In this document: positions 1-34,595 of the stretch, one piece after another
Numbering within the stretch: the first letter of the stretch is position 1
Layout of the letters: each line of letters begins with the position of its first letter
NCBI RefSeq assembly: GCF_016026235.1
Contig: NZ_CP065613.1
Source of the DNA: Escherichia coli
Lineage (GTDB): Bacteria > Pseudomonadota > Gammaproteobacteria > Enterobacterales > Enterobacteriaceae
Length of the DNA: 64,000 nt
Strand: one strand, 5' to 3'
Translations under genes and position numbers: made by a program
The notes under the pieces: generated by a model
What the model saw: only the letters and a program-made list of their open reading frames with translations
Told to the model about the DNA's origin: nothing
The model's database searches: none

Positions 1-1141
1 CAATACCATTTGCCGACAGCGGCGGCTGGATATATGGCCCACGGCTGAACGACGACATCGGCAGATCAAAGAACGGTGCTAACGGACGCAGAATCGACTC
101 CAGCGGGACAAACTCGCCAAACGGCACCAGATGGTTTTTGTTATAACGATCGGCTGATTCGTAGCTGTACGGTGCACCTTTACCCAGCGTGATAATGGTG
201 TTGTAGGTATCGTAGCGGTTCTGCTTATTGAGGCGCGCGTCGACAATCCCGGTTACCAGCGTACTCCCTTTATCGCGCAACTCACCGTCCAGTGCTTTGA
301 GGAACGGTTGCTGATTAATTTCCAGATCGGTTATCGCCGACTCCGGCCAGATAATCAACGATGATTTGCCCATCAGCGGTGCCGTTGCATTGTAGTAAAT
401 CTTCAGCGTATTAAGAAGCTGGCCTTCGTCCCATTTCAGCGATTGCGGAATATCGCCCTGAACCATCGAAACCTGAATGGTTTTCTCCGGTTGCGGGGTA
501 AACCATTGGATGTAACGCAGCGGGAAGGGTAGGGCAAACAGCACGACGGCCACTACCAGCGGACGCCAGTTGCGTTTGACCAACGCCAGTGCCAGCAGGC
601 CACTAACCATCATCAGCAGGAAGTTAATGGCTTCCACGCCCATTATCGGTGCCAGCCCTTTTAACGGGCCGTCAATCTGGCTATAGCCGAACTGTAACCA
701 CGGGAAGCCTGTCAGTACCCAACCGCGCAGAAACTCGGTCACTTGCCAGAGAGCAGGAGCGGCAATCGCCACGCGCAGCCAGGTGGTTTTCGGCCACAGG
801 CGCGACAGCACGCCAGCAAACAGTCCGGTATACAGCGACAAATACGCCGCCAGCAGTACCACCAGGAAGATGTTAACCGGGCCAGGCATTCCGCCAAAGG
901 TCGCGATGCTGACATAGACCCAGTTAATACCGCTGCCAAAGAGGCCAAATCCCCAGCAAAAGCCAATAGCGGCAGACTGGAGTGGACGGCGATTAAAGGT
1001 CAGCGCCTGAAGCCCCATCAGCGAAATAATCGCCGCAGGCCAGACATCGTAAGGAGAGAAGGCCAGCGTTCCGCAGGCACCGAATAATAACGCCAGCAGC
1101 AGGCGAATGCGCTGGCGTTCAATTAATGAGGCAAAAGCCAT
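1..1141 (-). CDS. lnt: Apolipoprotein N-acyltransferase Lnt, 5' portion only (3' end lies beyond window start)
   Basis: Minus-strand ATG at 1141-1139; translation begins [34 protein letters not shown], matching the Lnt N-terminus; open frame runs to position 1; position in the miaB-ybeZ-ybeY-corC-lnt cluster. Confidence 0.85.
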
Positions 1142-1165
1142 GTAGTTATCTATCCAGTTTCGGTT

Positions 1166-2044
1166 TTATTCATCCAGCTTCGGCTGGGGTGAGTCATCCG
1201 GGATTTTGACATGAACCTGAATAATACGCCGACTGTCGGCCATCGCCACTTTGAACTGGTAACCGTCGATGTCGATGGTTTCGCCACGTGCCGGAAGATG
1301 CCCAAATGCCTGCATCACCAGACCACCGATAGTGTCGACTTCTTCATCGCTAAAGTGGGTGCCGAACGCTTCGTTGAAGTCTTCAATGGAAGCCAGTGCG
1401 CGCACGGTCCAGGTATGACGACTCAGCTGACGGAAGTCGATATCATCTTCTTCGTCATATTCGTCTTCAATCTCACCAACAATCAGTTCCAGGATGTCTT
1501 CAATGGTTACCAGACCGGAAACCCCACCGAATTCGTCAATAACGATCGCCATGTGGTAACGCTGAGAGCGAAACTCTTTCAGCATCCGGTCTACGCGCTT
1601 ACTTTCAGGAACGACAACCGCCTGACGTAACACTTTGTCCATGCTGAAGGCTTCAGCATCGCTGCGCATAAACGGCAGCAAGTCTTTCGCCATCAGAATC
1701 CCTTCAATGTGATCTTTGTCTTCGCTAATCACCGGGAAACGTGAGTGGGCGGACTCGATGATGACATCAAGGCATTCGTCCAGCGTCTGGTTGCGTTTCA
1801 GGGTAATCATCTGGGAGCGGGGGATCATGATGTCGCGAACGCGTTGGTCTGCGATGTCCATCACCCCTTCGAGCATATCGCGCGTATCTTCGTCGATAAG
1901 GTCGTTCTGCCCGGAATCACGGATCAGCGCCAGCAGTTCGTCACGGTTTTTCGGTTCACCGTGGAAAAGTTGGCTGAGTAACAGGGAGAAAAATCCCTTC
2001 TTGTTGCTTATCGTGTCACTACTGTGTGAATTGTCGTCGCTCAT
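1166..2044 (-). CDS. corC: Mg2+/Co2+ efflux protein CorC (YbeX), CBS-domain protein, 292 aa
   Basis: Complete [19 protein letters not shown]...; recognised sequence and length; synteny. Confidence 0.95.
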
Positions 2045-2133
2045 GGCGTCGTATGGGTTCTCATGTTAGTTAATCAAAACGCCGTCGTTAATCACCAACG
2101 GCGGGGACGTCTGCCAGTCAAATGCCTGGCAAA

Positions 2134-2601
2134 TTATTCTTTCTCGGCAATGTACGGATCCTCATAGCCCAGAGCAAGCATAATCTCTGTTTCGAGGGCT
2201 TCCATTTCTTCTGCTTCGTCATCTTCGATGTGATCGTAACCTAACAAATGCAGACTGCCGTGCACCACCATATGCGCCCAGTGCGCCTCCAGTGGTTTGC
2301 CTTGCTCCTGTGCTTCCTTCTCAACCACCTGACGGCAGATAACCAGATCGCCCAGTAGCGACATCTCCATGCCGGGCGGCACTTCAAACGGGAAGGAGAG
2401 CACGTTGGTCGGCTTATCCTTACCGCGATAGGTCAGATTGAGACTGTGGCTTTCGGCGGTATCGACCACGCGAATCGTCACTTCCGACTCTTCCTGAAAC
2501 TGCGGGATCACCGCATTCAGCCATGTTTGAAACTGGCTCTCTTCCGGCAATCCGGAGTTATCTTCACATGCCAGTTGTAAATCGAGGATCACCTGACTCA
2601 T
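2134..2601 (-). CDS. ybeY: Endoribonuclease YbeY (rRNA maturation factor), 155 aa
   Basis: ORF with metal-binding motif [11 protein letters not shown]; 4-bp overlap with ybeZ stop. Confidence 0.95.
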
Positions 2602-3677
2602 TTTTGTTCCTGTTCTTCGCGCTTGCGTTCTGCCGCCAGCGCCGCTTTACGTTTTTGTTCGGCTTCTTCCCAGGCTTCATAGGCGTTAACGATACGCGCC
2701 ACCACCGGGTGACGAACCACGTCTTCGCTGTGGAAGAAGTTAAAGCTGATCTCTTCGACATCGGCCAGCACTTCGATGGCATGACGTAAGCCTGATTTAG
2801 TATTACGCGGCAGGTCGATCTGTGTGACGTCACCGGTGATAACCGCTTTTGAGTTAAAACCGATACGGGTCAGGAACATCTTCATCTGTTCGATGGTGGT
2901 GTTCTGGCTCTCATCGAGAATGATAAAGGCGTCATTCAGCGTACGACCACGCATATAGGCCAGCGGCGCGACTTCAATAACGTTGCGCTCAATCAGTTTC
3001 TCGACTTTCTCAAAGCCCAGCATTTCAAACAGCGCGTCGTACAGTGGGCGCAGATACGGGTCTACTTTCTGGCTTAAATCGCCAGGCAGGAAGCCCAGTT
3101 TCTCACCGGCTTCTACTGCCGGACGAGTCAGCAGAATACGGCGAATTTCCTGACGCTCCAGGGCATCAACTGCTGCAGCCACTGCCAGGTAGGTTTTACC
3201 CGTACCCGCCGGGCCAACGCCGAAGGTAATGTCATGGTCGAGAATATTGGCGATGTACTGCGCCTGGTTTGGCGTGCGCGGCTTAATTACGCCGCGTTTG
3301 GTTTTGATATTGACCGCTTTGCCGTACTCCGGCACGCTCTCCGCGCTTTGCTCCAGTACCCTTGCTTCTTTAATCGCAAGGTGGATCTGTTCCGGTTCGA
3401 TATCCTGAATCTGACCGCGCATCGGGGCAGTATCGACATACAGGCTACGCAGAATGTCTGCCGCAGCGGTGACGCAAATCGGACGGCCGGTCAGTTTAAA
3501 GTGGTTATCGCGGCGATTGATCTCGATGCCGAGACGGCGTTCGAGCTGCTTGATGTTGTCATCAAACGGGCCGCACAGGCTCAACAGACGCGCATTGTCT
3601 GCTGGCTCCAGGGTGATTTCGCGAGTGTCTATGTTCAAACCGTTCCTCTTATCTGTATGCCGCCGGAAGCTGAACAT
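2598..3677 (-). CDS. ybeZ: PhoH-like ATPase YbeZ
   Basis: Walker A GPAGTGKT in the ORF; synteny between miaB and ybeY; exact start codon uncertain (ORF maximum given). Confidence 0.9.
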
Positions 3678-3790: not shown

Positions 3791-5215
3791 TTACGGCTGA
3801 TAATAACCCACACCAAGGTCGTTTTCTTTGCGAGTACGGGCAATCACCGATTCCGGTGTTTCTGCCACGCGCAGACCCATTTCATCTTCAGTACGCACCA
3901 CTTTACCGCGCAGAGAGTTCGGGTAGACGTCGGTAATTTCTACATCGACGAATTTACCGATCATATCCGGTGTGCCCTCGAAGTTGACCACGCGGTTATT
4001 TTCGGTACGCCCGGAAAGCTCCATGATGCTCTTACGCGAAGTCCCTTCTACCAGAATACGCTGGGTGGTGCCGAGCATCCGGCGGCTCCATGCCATCGCT
4101 TGCTGATTGATACGTTCTTGCAGAATATACAGACGTTGCTTCTTCTCTTCTTCCGGAACATCATCAACCATATCGGCGGCTGGTGTACCCGGACGTGCAG
4201 AGAAGATAAAGCTGTAGCTCATGTCGAAATTGACGTCGGCAATCAGCTTCATCGTTTTCTCGAAGTCTTCGGTGGTTTCGCCAGGGAAGCCAACGATGAA
4301 ATCAGAACTGATCTGAATATCTGGACGCGCCGCACGCAGTTTACGGATGATCGCTTTGTACTCCAGCGCCGTATGGGTACGTCCCATCAGGTTCAGAATG
4401 CGATCGGAACCGCTCTGTACCGGCAGATGCAGGAAGCTCACCAGCTCCGGCGTGTCGCGATACACTTCGATGATATCGTCGGTGAATTCGATCGGATGGC
4501 TGGTGGTAAAGCGAATACGATCGATCCCGTCGATCGCAGCAACCAGACGCAACAGATCGGCAAACGATCCGGTGGTGCCGTCGTAGTTCTCACCACGCCA
4601 GGCATTCACATTCTGACCGAGCAGGTTGACTTCACGCACGCCCTGAGCCGCAAGCTGGGCGATCTCAAACAGAATATCGTCGGACGGACGGCTTACCTCT
4701 TCACCACGGGTGTAAGGCACCACGCAGTAGGTGCAATATTTATTGCAGCCTTCCATGATGGAGACAAACGCGGTCGGCCCTTCGGCGCGCGGTTCCGGTA
4801 GACGGTCAAACTTCTCGATTTCGGGGAAGCTGATATCTACAACCGGGCTGCGGTCGCCGCGCACGGAGTTGATCATCTCCGGCAGACGGTGCAGCGTTTG
4901 CGGCCCAAAAATAATATCGACATAGTGGGCGCGCTGGCGAATGTGCTCGCCTTCTTGCGATGCCACGCAGCCACCGACGCCGATAATCAGGTCTGGATTC
5001 TTCTCTTTTAACAGTTTCCAGCGACCCAACTGATGGAAGACTTTTTCCTGAGCCTTCTCGCGGATTGAGCAGGTGTTCAGCAGCAGCACATCCGCTTCTT
5101 CCGCCACGTCGGTCAGTTGATAGCCGTGGGTGGCATCCAGCAGATCGGCCATCTTCGATGAATCGTACTCGTTCATCTGACAGCCCCAGGTTTTAATATG
5201 GAGTTTTTTGGTCAT
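3791..5215 (-). CDS. miaB: tRNA i6A37 methylthiotransferase MiaB (radical SAM), 474 aa
   Basis: [22 protein letters not shown]...; radical-SAM cysteine motif CNKYCTYC; expected length. Confidence 0.95.
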
Positions 5216-9437: not shown

Positions 9438-9682
9438 AACCTTCTCCGTTAACCTGGTATTTGTTGCTTGTTGTGTTTGCTTGTTTAAAAAAATGCCGCA
9501 AAGCAGCACTGTGCGCAAGCGATTTGGCGGTGAAAAAATAAAAAACGTAATGGTGATTGTCGATTGGTGAAAAAGGGTCTGGTGTGAGGATGTATTTATT
9601 GATGAATCGATAATTTTTAGCGGGTTTTATTGAATGGTTATATTTTACGGGGGCCAAATTGCTGATAAAGTGCGATTTGTTC

Positions 9683-9795
9683 ATGCCGGATGCGGCGTGA
9701 ACGCCTTATCCGGCCTACAAAAGCATGAAAATTCAATATATTGCAGGAGCTGCGTAGGCCTGATAAGCGTAGCGCATCAGGCAGTTTGGCGTTTG
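9683..9795. repeat. BIME/RIP element: two inverted REPs flanking an IHF-like core
   Basis: gccggatgcggcgtgaacgccttatccggcctac ... aattcaatatattgcag ... gtaggcctgataagcgtagcgcatcaggc. Confidence 0.8.
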
Positions 9796-9833
9796 TCATC
9801 AGAGCCAACCACGTCCGCAGACGTGGGTGGTAT

Positions 9834-10586
9834 TCAGATAACGTCGATTTCAGCGACTGACGGGTAAATCCAGCTTGGGCGGAACGGCATACTGTCGATA
9901 TCGTCGAGCGATGAAACACCAGAAAGCACCAGAATCGTCTCCAGACCTGCCTGGAAGCCGGCCAGAATATCGGTACGCAGGTTATCGCCGACAATCACCG
10001 TTTCTTCCGAATGTGCCTGCATTTTGTTTAATGCCGCGCGGATAATCCACGGACTCGGCTTACCAACATAGAACGGTTTGCGCCCGGAGATTTTCTCAAT
10101 CCCTGCACACAACGCGCCACAGGCCGGATAAAAACCGCGCCCGTGAGTATCCGGGTTGGTGGCGATAAAGCGTGCACCGTTAGCGACGAAATAGGCCGCT
10201 TTATGCATCATGTCCCAGTTGTAGGAACGCGTTTCGCCAACAATCACAAAATCAGGGTTCACATCGGTAATAGTGAAACCGGCTTTGTACAGTTCATGAA
10301 TCAGTGCGCCTTCGCCCACCACATATGCTTTCTTGCCTTCCTGGCGACGCAGGAAATCGGCGGTCGCCATCGCAGAGGTATAAAACACGCTATCCGGCAC
10401 ATCGACACCGGCAGTGGCAAAGCGGTTCGCCAGATCTTGCCCGGTCTGCGAAGGATAGTTGGTCAGCAACACCAGCGGCAGGCCTTTATCCATAATCCCG
10501 TGCAAAAATTCCGCTGCACCCAGTACGGCGACGTTATCGTGCATCAGCACGCCGTCGATATCGCAAATTACATTTTTAATGGTCAT
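9834..10586 (-). CDS. umpH: UMP phosphatase UmpH (NagD), HAD superfamily, 250 aa
   Basis: ORF MTIKNVICDIDGVLMHDN... with HAD motif DxDGV; last gene of the nag operon. Confidence 0.95.
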   Translation of the reverse strand: MTIKNVICDIDGVLMHDNVAVLGAAEFLHGIMDKGLPLVLLTNYPSQTGQDLANRFATAGVDVPDSVFYTSAMATADFLRRQEGKKAYVVGEGALIHELYKAGFTITDVNPDFVIVGETRSYNWDMMHKAAYFVANGARFIATNPDTHGRGFYPACGALCAGIEKISGRKPFYVGKPSPWIIRAALNKMQAHSEETVIVGDNLRTDILAGFQAGLETILVLSGVSSLDDIDSMPFRPSWIYPSVAEIDVI

Positions 10587-10633
10587 GGACTACCCAGAAT
10601 ATTGACAACAATAAGCGCCACTATAAAAGCACA

Positions 10634-18094: not shown

Positions 18095-18275
18095 CTATGC
18101 CGGATGGGGCGTTTACGTCGCATCCGGCAAGGAACAGACAAACAGTTTCAAACGCTAAATTGCCTGATGCGCTACGCTTATCAGGCCTACATGATCTCTG
18201 CAATATATTGAGTTTGCGTGCTTTTGTAGGCCGGATAAGGCGTTCACGCCGCATCCGGCAAGAAACATGCAAACA
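18095..18275. repeat. REP/BIME cluster (RIP-type with IHF-like core)
   Basis: atgccggatggggcgtttacgtcgcatccggc, gcctgatgcgctacgcttatcaggcctac, tgcaatatattgag core, gtaggccggataaggcgttcacgccgcatccggc. Confidence 0.8.
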
Positions 18276-23885: not shown

Positions 23886-25526
23886 ATGGCAATCCACAAT
23901 CGTGCAGGCCAACCTGCACAACAGAGTGATTTGATTAACGTCGCCCAACTGACGGCGCAATATTATGTACTGAAACCAGAAGCAGGGAATGCGGAGCACG
24001 CGGTGAAATTCGGTACTTCCGGTCACCGTGGCAGTGCAGCGCGCCACAGCTTTAACGAGCCGCACATTCTGGCGATCGCTCAGGCAATTGCTGAAGAACG
24101 TGCGAAAAACGGCATCACTGGCCCTTGCTATGTGGGTAAAGATACTCACGCCCTGTCCGAGCCTGCGTTCATTTCCGTACTGGAAGTGCTGGCAGCGAAC
24201 GGCGTTGATGTCATTGTGCAGGAAAACAATGGCTTCACTCCGACGCCTGCCGTTTCCAATGCCATCCTGGTTCACAATAAAAAAGGTGGCCCGCTGGCAG
24301 ACGGTATCGTGATTACACCGTCCCATAACCCGCCGGAAGATGGTGGTATCAAGTACAATCCGCCAAATGGTGGCCCGGCTGATACTAACGTCACCAAAGT
24401 GGTGGAAGACAGGGCCAACGCACTGATGGCCGATGGCCTGAAAGGCGTGAAGCGTATCTCCCTCGACGAAGCGATGGCATCCGGTCATGTGAAAGAGCAG
24501 GATCTGGTGCAGCCGTTCGTGGAAGGGCTGGCCGATATCGTTGATATGGCGGCGATTCAGAAAGCGGGCCTGACGCTGGGCGTTGATCCGTTGGGCGGTT
24601 CCGGTATCGAATACTGGAAGCGCATTGGCGAGTATTACAACCTCAACCTGACCATCGTTAACGATCAGGTCGATCAAACCTTCCGCTTTATGCACCTCGA
24701 TAAAGACGGTGCGATCCGTATGGACTGCTCCTCCGAGTGTGCGATGGCGGGTCTGCTGGCACTGCGTGATAAGTTCGATCTGGCGTTTGCTAACGACCCG
24801 GATTATGACCGTCACGGTATCGTCACTCCGGCAGGTTTGATGAATCCGAACCACTACCTGGCGGTGGCGATCAACTACCTGTTCCAGCATCGTCCGCAGT
24901 GGGGCAAAGATGTTGCTGTCGGTAAAACGCTGGTTTCTTCTGCGATGATCGACCGTGTGGTCAATGACTTGGGCCGTAAGCTGGTAGAAGTACCGGTAGG
25001 TTTCAAATGGTTTGTTGATGGTCTGTTCGACGGCAGCTTCGGCTTTGGCGGCGAAGAGAGCGCAGGGGCTTCCTTCCTGCGTTTCGACGGCACGCCGTGG
25101 TCCACCGACAAAGACGGCATCATTATGTGTCTGCTGGCGGCGGAAATCACCGCTGTCACCGGTAAGAACCCGCAGGAACACTACAACGAACTGGCAAAAC
25201 GCTTTGGTGCGCCGAGCTACAACCGTTTGCAGGCAGCTGCGACTTCCGCACAAAAAGCGGCGCTGTCTAAGCTGTCTCCGGAAATGGTGAGCGCCAGCAC
25301 CCTGGCAGGTGACCCGATCACCGCGCGCCTGACTGCTGCTCCGGGCAACGGTGCTTCTATTGGCGGTCTGAAAGTGATGACTGACAACGGCTGGTTCGCC
25401 GCGCGTCCGTCAGGCACGGAAGACGCATATAAGATCTACTGCGAAAGCTTCCTCGGTGAAGAACATCGCAAGCAGATTGAGAAAGAAGCGGTTGAGATTG
25501 TTAGCGAAGTTCTGAAAAACGCGTAA
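23886..25526 (+). CDS. pgm: Phosphoglucomutase Pgm, 546 aa
   Basis: Protein begins [21 protein letters not shown]; active-site region GTSGHRG; ATG at 23886. Confidence 0.95.
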
Positions 25527-25542
25527 ACACATTTAATAAAAA

Positions 25543-25570
25543 AAGGGCGGTCGCAAGATCGCCCTTTTTT
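25543..25570 (+). terminator. Intrinsic terminator of pgm
   Basis: gggcggtc-gcaa-gatcgccc hairpin followed by TTTTTT. Confidence 0.8.
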
Positions 25571-25589
25571 ACGTATGACAAACACAGAA

Positions 25590-25690
25590 TTGCCTGATGC
25601 GCTACGCTTATCAGGCCTGCGAGGATGGTGCAATATATTGAATTTAAGCGATTTTGTAGGCCGGATAAGGCGTTCATGCCGGATCCAGCA
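25590..25690. repeat. BIME/RIP element (two inverted REPs plus IHF-like core) at the pgm-kdpE junction
   Basis: gcctgatgcgctacgcttatcaggcctgc ... caatatattgaatttaagcg ... gtaggccggataaggcgttcatgccggatcc. Confidence 0.8.
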
Positions 25691-25699
25691 TTTAACCGC

Positions 25700-26377
25700 C
25701 TAAAGCATAAACCGATACCCAATACCGGTTTCAGTAATGAAATGGCGGGGGCGAGTGGGATCCTGTTCCAGTTTTTGTCGCAGATGTCCCATATAAATAC
25801 GCAAATAATGACTGTGTTCGACCGCGTTTGGCCCCCACACCTGGTTAAGGAGTTGGCGCTGGGTGAGCACTTTCCCGGCATTATTCAGCAGCACCGCCAG
25901 CAGGCGGAATTCAATCGGCGTGAGATGCACCTCTTCCTCACCCCGGTGAATCACGCGGGCGGCTAAATCGACGGTAACATCGGAAAATTTCACCAGCGGA
26001 TCTGGCGCGGCGGTGGCGGAGTGGCGGCGTAAAGCGACGCGCAGACGGGCCTGCAATTCGCCAATGCCAAACGGCTTACTTAGATAATCATCCGCTCCGG
26101 CATCCAGCGCGGCGATTTTGTCGCTCTCTTCGCTGCGTGCGGAAAGCACAATCACCGGCACCGCGCTCCACTGGCGCAGGTCGCGGATAAACTCAATCCC
26201 ATCACCATCGGGCAGGCCGAGATCGAGAATAATCAAATCTGGCTTACGGGTTGCCGCTTCCAGCAAGCCGCGTTGCAGCGTTTCGGCCTCAAAGACGCGC
26301 ATACCGTCGCCCTCCAGCGCCGTGCGCAGAAAGCGACGAATAGCCTGTTCATCTTCAACAATCAGAACGTTTGTCAC
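25700..26377 (-). CDS. kdpE: Response regulator KdpE (OmpR family), 225 aa
   Basis: [66 protein letters not shown]...; receiver plus winged-helix domains. Confidence 0.96.
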   Translation of the reverse strand: MTNVLIVEDEQAIRRFLRTALEGDGMRVFEAETLQRGLLEAATRKPDLIILDLGLPDGDGIEFIRDLRQWSAVPVIVLSARSEESDKIAALDAGADDYLSKPFGIGELQARLRVALRRHSATAAPDPLVKFSDVTVDLAARVIHRGEEEVHLTPIEFRLLAVLLNNAGKVLTQRQLLNQVWGPNAVEHSHYLRIYMGHLRQKLEQDPTRPRHFITETGIGYRFML

Positions 26378-31702: not shown

Positions 31703-33376
31703 TCAGGAGAGATATTCCGCCACCGGACCAAGCGCCAGGGCAGGGATAAAGGTCAGTGCGCCAACCAGCAACACGGTGCCGATTAACAGGCCAACAAACA
31801 GCGGGCCGTGCGTTGGCAGCGTGCCGGAGCTGGCGGGTTGGCTCTTTTTACTCACCAGCGAACCGGCAATTGCCATCACCGGGATAATCACCCCGAAGCG
31901 ACCGACAAACATGCAGAACGCCAGTAAACAGTTCCAGAACGGAGAGTTGGCGCTTAATCCGGCAAAGGCGCTGCCGTTGTTGTTAGCGGCGGATGACACG
32001 GCGTACAGCACTTCGCTAAAACCATGCGGGCCAGGGTTGAGCATGGCGCTACGTCCGGCGTCGGTCATCATTGCCAGCGCCGCGCCCATCAGCACCAGCG
32101 TCGGGGTGACCAGAATCGCCAGTGCAGTCAGTTTCATCTCACGTACGTCGATTTTTTTACCCAGATATTCCGGTGTACGACCAATCATCAGCCCGGCAAT
32201 AAACACCGCCAGCAGGACAAACAGCATCATGCCGTAAAGACCAGAACCGACACCGCCGAATACCACTTCACCAATTTGCATCAGCCACATCGGCACCATG
32301 CCACCGAGAGCGGTAAACGAATCATGCATCGCAATCACCGCGCCACAGGACGCCGCCGTAGTCACGACCGCAAACAGGCTACTGACCAGCACGCCGAAAC
32401 GGCTCTCTTTACCTTCCATATTGATGCTGCTGTCTGCGCCGAGCGCCAGCAGATGAGGATTACCCTGAACTTCTGCCCACATCACCACGCCTACGCAGAT
32501 GACAAAAATCACTGACATCGCCCACAGCAACATGCGCCCCTGGCGGCGATCGCCCGTCACTTCACCAAAGGCAAAGCACAGCGCTGTTGGGATCAAGAAG
32601 ATCGCCAGCATCTGCACGAAGTTGGTCAGTGCGGTTGGGTTTTCAAACGGATGCGACGAGTTGGCATTAAAGAAGCCACCGCCGTTAGTACCGAGCATCT
32701 TGATCGCTTCCTGAGAAGCTACTGGCCCCATGGGTAACAGCTGTTGCGCTCCTTCAACGGTATTCACTGCCTGATAGGGCAGAAAGTTTTGCAGCGCACC
32801 TTGTTGAATAAAAAACAGTGCGATCAACAACGCCACAGGGACTAGCACCCATAACGTGATGCGTAGCAGATCGACCCAGGCATTCCCGAGTGTGCTCATG
32901 CTCTGGCGGGTAAATGCACGGATGAAGGCAAAAATCACCGCAATCCCGCTGGCGGCAGAAAGAAAGTTTTGCACCGTTAAGCCCGCCATCTGGCTGAAAT
33001 AGCTCAACGTGGTTTCACCGCTATAAGATTGCCAGTTGGTATTGGTGACAAAGCTGACGGCGGTATTCAGCGCCAGATCCCACGACAGCCCCGGCAACTG
33101 CTGTGGATTAAGCGGCAGATAGTGCTGACCGAGCAACATAAAAAACAGCACCGCCAGCCCCAGCATGTTCAGGCCGAGAATGGCACAAAGATATTGCTTC
33201 CAGTTCATCTCATGGTCAGAGACGCCAGGTAAACGAAAGAGTATACGTTCAACGCCCGCTGTACCTGGAAGAGGAATGTCATTAATCAGCCGCGCCAGCC
33301 CGCTGCCTAAAGGACGCGCCAGCACCATTAACACCAGTAAAAACGTGGCGATCAGTAAGAACCCTTGCGCAGCCAT
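31703..33376 (-). CDS. kdpA: K+-transporting ATPase channel subunit KdpA, 557 aa
   Basis: Protein begins [30 protein letters not shown]; polytopic membrane protein; ATG at 33376 overlapping the kdpF stop. Confidence 0.95.
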
Positions 33377-33465
33377 CAGAACGCCTCCGCATTGATCAGG
33401 GCATAAACCAGATAACCCAGTAATAAAAACACCAGCAATACGCCGGTTATCACGCCTGCACTCAC
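33376..33465 (-). CDS. kdpF: KdpF, 29-aa membrane peptide of the Kdp complex
   Basis: GTG start at 33465 preceded by GGAGG; peptide (M)[32 protein letters not shown] overlap with kdpA. Confidence 0.8.
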
Positions 33466-33540
33466 AGTGCACCTCCAGTGGCCTAAAAGTGATACCGGAA
33501 GGGTAGAATTCTGGCTGCAAAGATTTCGCAAAAATCTGCG

Positions 33541-33570
33541 GACGGGGTGTAAAAAAAGTATAAAAATGGC
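33541..33570 (-). promoter_or_regulatory. KdpE binding site / kdpFABC promoter region
   Basis: Minus-strand CATTTTTATACTTTTTTTACACCCCGTC containing direct half-site repeats TTTATAC / TTTTTAC; matches my recollection of the KdpE operator. Confidence 0.55.
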
Positions 33571-33777
33571 AAAAGCCATGATTTAACTAATGTTTAGTAT
33601 TAATTTAACTTTTGTGTAACTTAATTACAGGGTGAATGTAAATAAACCATCAATAAGCAAAAATAAGTGGTCGGATGAGTAGTAAAATTACACAAAAGGC
33701 GGTACTATTTTCATCAGATAAACAAATTCATTTTTCCGGTGCTATTCACCGGGTAGATACAAAAGGGGGAGAAAAGT

Positions 33778-33984
33778 ATGGAACTCTACAGAGAATATCC
33801 TGCATGGCTTATCTTTTTACGCCGTACTTATGCGGTTGCAGCGGGCGTTCTGGCGCTGCCTTTCATGCTTTTCTGGAAAGACCGCGCCCGCTTTTACAGC
33901 TACCTGCACCGCGTCTGGTCGAAAACCAGCGACAAACCGGTGTGGATGGATCAGGCCGAAAAGGCAACCGGTGATTTTTACTGA
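33778..33984 (+). CDS. ybfA: Small membrane protein YbfA (DUF2517), 68 aa
   Basis: [71 protein letters not shown]. Confidence 0.85.
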
Positions 33985-34004
33985 TTGCTGAGTTTTGAAT
34001 ACAT

Positions 34005-34040
34005 TGAAAACCGCTAGTGGAAACGCTGGCGGTTTTTTTC
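34005..34040 (+). terminator. Intrinsic terminator downstream of ybfA
   Basis: aaccgc...gcggtt hairpin followed by TTTTTTT (34034-34040). Confidence 0.65.
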
Positions 34041-34085
34041 TTATCGCCGTCTACACTTACTCCTGTAAACCGTTCAGGAGCAGTA

Positions 34086-34595
34086 ATGAATCAGCAACGA
34101 TTTGATGACAGCACCCTAATCCGTATCTTCGCCCTTCATGAGTTACATCGACTGAAAGAACATGGCTTAACGCGCGGGGCGCTTCTCGATTATCACAGCC
34201 GCTATAAACTCGTCTTTCTGGCTCATTCCCAGCCGGAATACCGCAAACTTGGCCCGTTCGTGGCTGATATTCACCAGTGGCAAAATCTGGATGACTATTA
34301 CAACCAGTACCGCCAACGCGTAATTGTTTTGCTTTCTCATCCCGCCAACCCGCGCGATCACACCAACGTTTTGATGCACGTTCAGGGGTATTTTCGCCCG
34401 CATATTGATTCCACAGAACGCCAGCAGCTGGCGGCGCTTATCGACAGTTATCGCCGTGGCGAGCAACCGCTTCTTGCGCCGCTGATGCGTATCAAACACT
34501 ATATGGCGCTTTATCCTGACGCCTGGCTTTCAGGGCAGCGTTATTTCGAACTTTGGCCGCGTGTGATTAACTTGCGCCATTCAGGAGTTTTATGA
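34086..34595 (+). CDS. ybgA: YbgA (DUF1722 family), 169 aa
   Basis: ATG at 34086 with AGGAG 7 nt upstream; protein MNQQRFDDSTLIRIFALHELHRLKEHGL...; the ORF-table start at 34017 lies inside the ybfA terminator hairpin and is rejected. Confidence 0.85.
   Translation: MNQQRFDDSTLIRIFALHELHRLKEHGLTRGALLDYHSRYKLVFLAHSQPEYRKLGPFVADIHQWQNLDDYYNQYRQRVIVLLSHPANPRDHTNVLMHVQGYFRPHIDSTERQQLAALIDSYRRGEQPLLAPLMRIKHYMALYPDAWLSGQRYFELWPRVINLRHSGVL

Follow-up and report, generated by a model that had tools for sequence, protein, structure and literature searches.

In Escherichia coli K-12 the genes ybfA and ybgA lie at opposite ends of an Rhs element, RhsC. In the stretch of E. coli DNA analyzed here (64,000 nucleotides, hereafter the window) the same two genes are direct neighbors, which raises the question of whether such a compact junction is the site as it was before an element arrived or what remains after an element was lost. 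The comparisons favor the former. With a probability of roughly 0.9, the 101-bp stretch between the two genes is an unoccupied, ancestral-type allele of the RhsC site, and a single insertion took place early in Escherichia.

That an rhs locus lies between kdpA and phr, and that its presence varies, is already published (Jackson et al. 2009; Archer et al. 2011), and the polymorphism itself is known and ordinary. The kdpA-phr interval is rhs 'locus 5', a position that is often occupied though not universally so (Jackson et al. 2009, PMC2935791, Table 3). A complete rhs gene occupies locus 5 in E. albertii, the locus was inferred to be older than E. coli, and one group of pathogenic strains is without the Clade I rhs expansion (PMC2935791). 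The region b0699-b0706 ('RHS 4') has been tabulated across laboratory strains (Archer et al. 2011, PMC3032704). A literature search on ybgA-phr yielded nothing but work on Tn7 and integrons in which these gene names recur.

The gene order in the window is kdpB, kdpA and kdpF on the minus strand, followed by ybfA, ybgA and phrB on the plus strand and then dtpD on the minus strand. The list of open reading frames was compared with the RefSeq annotation of E. coli FDAARGOS_943, which is 100% identical to the window over the junction and supplied the RefSeq positions of ybfA and ybgA. Both delimit the intergenic gap to 33985..34085, or 101 bp; the end of ybfA at 33984, the start of ybgA at 34086 and a distance of about 100 bp, as given in the first-pass annotation, are exact. 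The junction and its flanks comprise the following features:

33778..33984, plus strand: ybfA, encoding a YbfA family protein of 68 aa (open reading frame list; same coordinates as RefSeq ybfA in FDAARGOS_943)
34006..34039, plus strand: predicted intrinsic terminator of ybfA (terminator scan and RNA fold)
34039..34047, no strand assigned: empty-site spacer TCTTATCGC, 9 bases (K-12 blastn and population breakpoints)
34049..34059, plus strand: GTCTACACTTA box, directly right of the insertion point (alignments across genera)
34060..34085, plus strand: putative ybgA leader (RNA fold; inverted repeat kept within Escherichia)
34086..34595, plus strand: ybgA, YbgA family, 169 aa (open reading frame list and RefSeq annotation of FDAARGOS_943)
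34592..36010, plus strand: phrB, its start overlapped by the end of ybgA (open reading frame list)

Two regions close to this junction are intact in the window and disrupted in FDAARGOS_943 (L001), where an IS5-family insertion at 4239..5083 splits kdpA and an IS1 at 9905..10602 has deleted ybgI along with the 5' end of dtpD. The window thus stems from another strain with a lighter IS load.

The terminator hairpin noted in the gap by the first-pass annotation was recovered. A stem-loop of 14 pairs with a GAAA loop (34006..34037) overlaps a run of seven T residues (34033..34039); its predicted stability of -21.3 kcal/mol (z = -6.9) was reached by none of 200 shuffled sequences. The arrangement is that of an intrinsic terminator, in which a GC-rich stem-loop behind a gene leads directly into a U run on that gene's strand, and the position of hairpin and T run is conserved in K-12, B2 strains, Citrobacter, Enterobacter and Trabulsiella. 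Relative to K-12, the 5' arm of the stem carries C-to-T changes at 34015 and 34018 (CCGCCAGCGG to CCGCTAGTGG). Both turn G-C pairs into G-U pairs and the hairpin is kept; the CCGCTAGTGG variant was encountered only in the small genome cluster to which the window belongs. An Rfam scan of 33300..34700 returned no Rfam family and only a chance miRNA match (E = 0.31).

While 34006..34039 would act as the terminator of ybfA, 34060..34085 would serve as the leader of ybgA. A Shine-Dalgarno sequence, AGGAG, is located at 34076..34080, 5 nt before the ybgA ATG. In the predicted fold it is paired by an inverted repeat, CTCCTG (34060..34065) and CAGGAG (34075..34080) with nine nucleotides between them, and such a hairpin could sequester the Shine-Dalgarno sequence. 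The repeat is conserved within Escherichia and different sequences stand in its place in other genera; a consensus fold of the leader from 11 sequences of four genera contained zero predicted pairs. As judged from these folds, the hairpin that pairs the ybgA ribosome-binding site is specific to Escherichia. The GTCTACACTTA box, on the other side of the leader from the start codon, is near-invariant in Escherichia, Citrobacter, Enterobacter and Trabulsiella and lies ~27-37 bp upstream of the start codon of ybgA. This box might act as a binding site or as a -10-like element, and the TACACT inside it is a possible candidate for the latter, serving ybgA-phr. Neither the window junction nor the right-hand element ends of K-12 and O55:H7 showed a sigma-70 consensus promoter for ybgA in a promoter scan, so that a -10 role for TACACT is put forward as speculation. 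Transcription of ybgA-phrB in the compact arrangement might come from read-through of the terminator or from a weak promoter at TACACT.

The exact extent of the empty site was defined by alignment to K-12 and to Rhs-less genomes. In K-12 (strain DH10B) ybfA and ybgA are not adjacent; the 9,660 bp between them contain rhsC, ybfB, an N-terminally truncated RHS core fragment, ybfC, ybfQ, an ISAs1 pseudogene and ybfD; ybfL/ybfD and the ISAs1/H-rpt copies likewise belong to this interval. The first-pass annotation had placed an RhsC element with such companions at this point in K-12, and rightly so. Only the two ends of the K-12 interval matched the window in blastn, bases 1-54 corresponding to 33985..34038 and bases 9623-9660 to 34048..34085, which leaves the spacer as the sole part of the junction without an alignment to K-12. 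At the RhsC locus of K-12 (b0699-b0707) the site and the flanking genes are the same as in the window, and the flanks agree as far as the T run at the left and again starting with GTCTACAC at the right. The window allele differs in being unoccupied, its nine bases being replaced in K-12 by 9,568 bp. The exact element boundary carries an uncertainty of up to ~12 bases, as there is a loose resemblance between the spacer and the element's right end (TTTCTCAAC / TTTACCATC). Terminal inverted repeats and a target-site duplication at the ends of the K-12 element were no better than those in shuffled sequences, and the mechanism of insertion is therefore invisible in this element.

Other occupied strains verified these breakpoints. 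The gap between ybfA and ybgA measures 7,880 bp in O55:H7 and 7,696 bp in 88-3493, and both elements carry an RHS core protein, ybfC, an NTF2-fold immunity gene and an intact ISEc1 transposase. The junctions of O55:H7 are those of K-12, with GGCGGTTTTTT followed by GTATCAGG on the left and the flank resuming at GTCTACAC on the right. Occupied strains thus have an Rhs element of about 7.6-9.6 kb in place of the spacer, and this element always ends directly left of the GTCTACACTTA box. No Rhs or ISAs1 homology was detected in the 64-kb window by tblastn with six K-12 element proteins (RhsC, YbfB, the RHS fragment, YbfC and ISAs1 proteins; best E = 0.35), and the alignments place no Rhs core at the site. 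The make-up of an occupied locus, a GC-rich YD-repeat core reading frame with an AT-rich tip and downstream genes, is found neither at the site nor in the rest of the window. All element genes are absent, and the strain is non-K-12 at this site, as had been proposed.

The frequency of the compact junction was obtained from the complete E. coli genomes that matched a 701-bp junction query, 5,424 in all. The ybfA-ybgA junction is contiguous in 1,310 of them (24%), and the remaining genomes split the query at 340/349, which corresponds to 34039/34048 of the window. Contiguous genomes that were sampled include Nissle 1917 and O127:H6 (E2348/69), both of which belong to phylogroup B2. The B2 empty junction has the same terminator, T run, short spacer, GTCTACACTTA box and ybgA leader as the window. 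It differs in length (100 bp versus 101 bp), in the 20 bases past the ybfA stop, which represent a different haplotype, and in the spacer (TTTTCTTTTT-TCGGC versus TTTTTTTCTTATCGCC). Only three genomes are at least 99% identical to the window at the junction query, namely FDAARGOS_943, the O18ac:H14 strain 873.10 and EC2641, and none of the complete E. coli genomes matches the window exactly. The nearest complete genome is 873.10, with 99.6% identity over 28.9 kb of the window, while 88-3493, which is Rhs-occupied, is the nearest genome outside the three-genome cluster. The backbone of the window is nearer to occupied non-B2 strains than to B2 empty-site strains.

The window has further features of its own. 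The fimbrial usher gene ybgQ (44810..47269, minus strand) contains a premature stop at 46334..46336 (Q312*), compared to an intact gene of 820 aa in 873.10, and owing to this nonsense change ybgQ is probably a pseudogene in the window strain. A second compact junction of 173 bp with REP-like sequence (25527..25699) separates pgm (23886..25526) from kdpE (25700..26377). The corresponding interval of K-12 spans ~5.9 kb and holds a lipoprotein gene (ybfP), a DUF2625 pseudogene, potE, speF and speFL, none of which is present between pgm and kdpE in the window. At this site the strain is consequently without the inducible ornithine decarboxylase/antiporter pair. The compact pgm-kdpE form is common to 873.10 and 88-3493. 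Palindromic repeats of REP type were located at 9683..9799, 18149..18260 and 25570..25690; they are intergenic and match each other at 85-88%.

Whether the occupied or the empty state came first was addressed with outgroup genera. A scan for the YbgA protein in one genome per bacterial species yielded 21 loci. The order kdpA-ybfA-ybgA-phr with ybfA about 100-180 bp from ybgA was found in six Citrobacter species, an Enterobacter and Trabulsiella; among genera further removed, ybfA is located within ~0.5-0.8 kb in Dickeya, Erwinia, Pragia and Budvicia and at a distance of ~2.2 kb in Samsonia. In Citrobacter, Enterobacter and Trabulsiella the gene order and the intergenic layout are those of the window, while YbfA is 72-84% and YbgA 57-68% identical and the hairpin and leader sequences differ, with no leader structure in common. 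The intergenic sequences of these close genera align with that of the window over the hairpin, the T run, a spacer of 9-11 bases and the GTCTACACTTA box. The spacer of the window (CTTATCGCC) is similar, and by alignment homologous, to the Citrobacter spacer (ATGCACGGAC) and to the spacers in other empty Escherichia alleles (GTTTTCGCC, ATGTACGCC); its ending CGCC recurs in the empty alleles of the divergent Escherichia E69 and SCPM-O-B-8794, with a resemblance to Citrobacter. A spacer of the window type was found in none of the occupied alleles examined. Since Citrobacter, Enterobacter and Trabulsiella share both the compact layout and a homologous spacer, the empty site is ancestral. The stretch in the window has everything that marks an empty allele: ybfA and ybgA-phrB as flanks, no element genes, homology to occupied alleles that stops at both junctions, and ancestral sequence in between. 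On the strength of these alignments, the compact junction is the ancestral arrangement and not a deletion scar.

The occupied Escherichia alleles examined have one right junction in common. The sequence CACAAAnnTCATTnnCnAnC immediately followed by GTCTACAC is present in K-12, O55:H7, E. albertii NBRC 107761, E. whittamii and the isolates E1V33 and MOD1-EC7003 (Escherichia sp., two unnamed species), and upstream of CACAAAnnTCATTnnCnAnC these alleles show ISAs1 or Rhs sequence or a contig end. The left junction was compared in E. coli strains only, as in the other species the contigs stop within the element or next to it. The shared right junction points to a single old Rhs insertion. The ancestral site would have consisted of the intrinsic terminator of ybfA, a spacer of ~9 bases, the GTCTACACTTA box and a ybgA-phrB leader with its ribosome-binding site. 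Early in Escherichia, a single insertion would then have placed a block of 7.6-9.6 kb between the T run and the GTCTACAC box in exchange for the spacer, the block being composed of an rhs core gene with a toxin tip, an immunity gene, orphan tips and ISAs1/H-rpt copies. The allele of the window lineage would descend from a copy that was never interrupted.

Vertical retention is not the only history that could have brought this allele into the window lineage, because the flanks of the window are 98-99% identical to those of the occupied strains 88-3493 and O55:H7 up to both sides of the junction (500-bp bins) and because 88-3493 is itself occupied. An ancestor of the strain could have carried the Rhs element and then received an empty allele from another Escherichia strain by homologous recombination in the flanks; in that case, too, the junction would represent an empty allele of ancestral type, though not a vertically inherited one. 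This fits with 88-3493 sharing the compact pgm-kdpE junction and yet carrying the element, and local mosaicism does exist at the site, as strain 500010 is K-12-like on the left side and B2-like on the right. No donor allele was found, however: the terminator and spacer variants CTAGTG and CTTATCGCC were seen only in the three-genome cluster of the window, the sampled B2 empty-site genomes are ~92% identical to the window over 701 bp, and the flanks of E69 and SCPM-O-B-8794 are 87-97% identical (500-bp bins). Nor is there a spike of divergence at the junction relative to occupied strains, and the reverse history, in which recombination brought the element into 88-3493, accounts for these observations too. 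A secondary loss of this kind is regarded as rather unlikely. With uninterrupted descent of the site as the preferred reading, the lineage may have kept the empty allele while its relatives gained the element by recombination.

Far less probable is a loss in place, in which an Rhs element was excised or deleted by illegitimate recombination and left the 101 bp behind. Rhs loci are known to decay into relics and pseudogenes (PMC2935791), but nothing specific to this junction speaks for such an event. The 9-base spacer is missing from every occupied allele, so a deletion could not recreate it, and still it aligns with other empty alleles and with Citrobacter. Remnants of Rhs, orphan-tip or ISAs1 sequence are absent, and the element ends have no repeats that could support precise excision. 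With no residual element, no target-site duplication and no lost ancestral bases, a deletion or excision scar was rejected. The collapse of a repeated Rhs/IS region in the window's assembly was also rejected as barely conceivable: Rhs and ISAs1 repeats do break drafts, as seen for the contigs of E. albertii, E1V33 and MOD1-EC7003 that end near the site, but the identical junction is present in three independent complete genomes, contiguity extends to 1,310 complete genomes, and a collapse would not yield the ancestral spacer.

An uninterrupted, ancestral site also changes how the missing element is to be read. The first-pass annotation had found the absence of RhsC to fit the accessory, horizontally mobile nature of Rhs loci; the absence is real, but by the outgroups it is the ancestral state and does not signal that a mobile element was lost, and mobility of the element finds no support here. 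The data fit one old insertion followed by sorting or recombination, which agrees with the view of Jackson et al. that rhs loci occupy fixed positions and are not specialised accessory elements (PMC2935791). The empty allele is present in the sampled B2 strains, in the window lineage and in the divergent Escherichia E69 and SCPM-O-B-8794. It is tempting to see the kdpA-phr site as a long-lived trans-species presence/absence polymorphism in which one ancient insertion and the ancestral empty allele coexist, a tentative idea that we hold to be somewhat more doubtful than not. Balancing selection or repeated recombination could maintain both alleles.

In practice, the junction is a clean strain-typing marker that separates Rhs-free from Rhs-bearing kdp-phr alleles and has little significance beyond that. 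The element always lies directly upstream of the GTCTACACTTA box, and Rhs-positive and Rhs-negative strains would differ in the upstream context, and perhaps in the expression, of the ybgA-phrB photolyase operon. Rhs proteins are toxins in competition between bacteria (PMC3150448, PMC2935791), so that a strain without the kdp-phr locus has one toxin/immunity set fewer. The site provides a clear case in which the Rhs-free state is ancestral and the element would have arrived once, between a terminator and the leader of the next operon.
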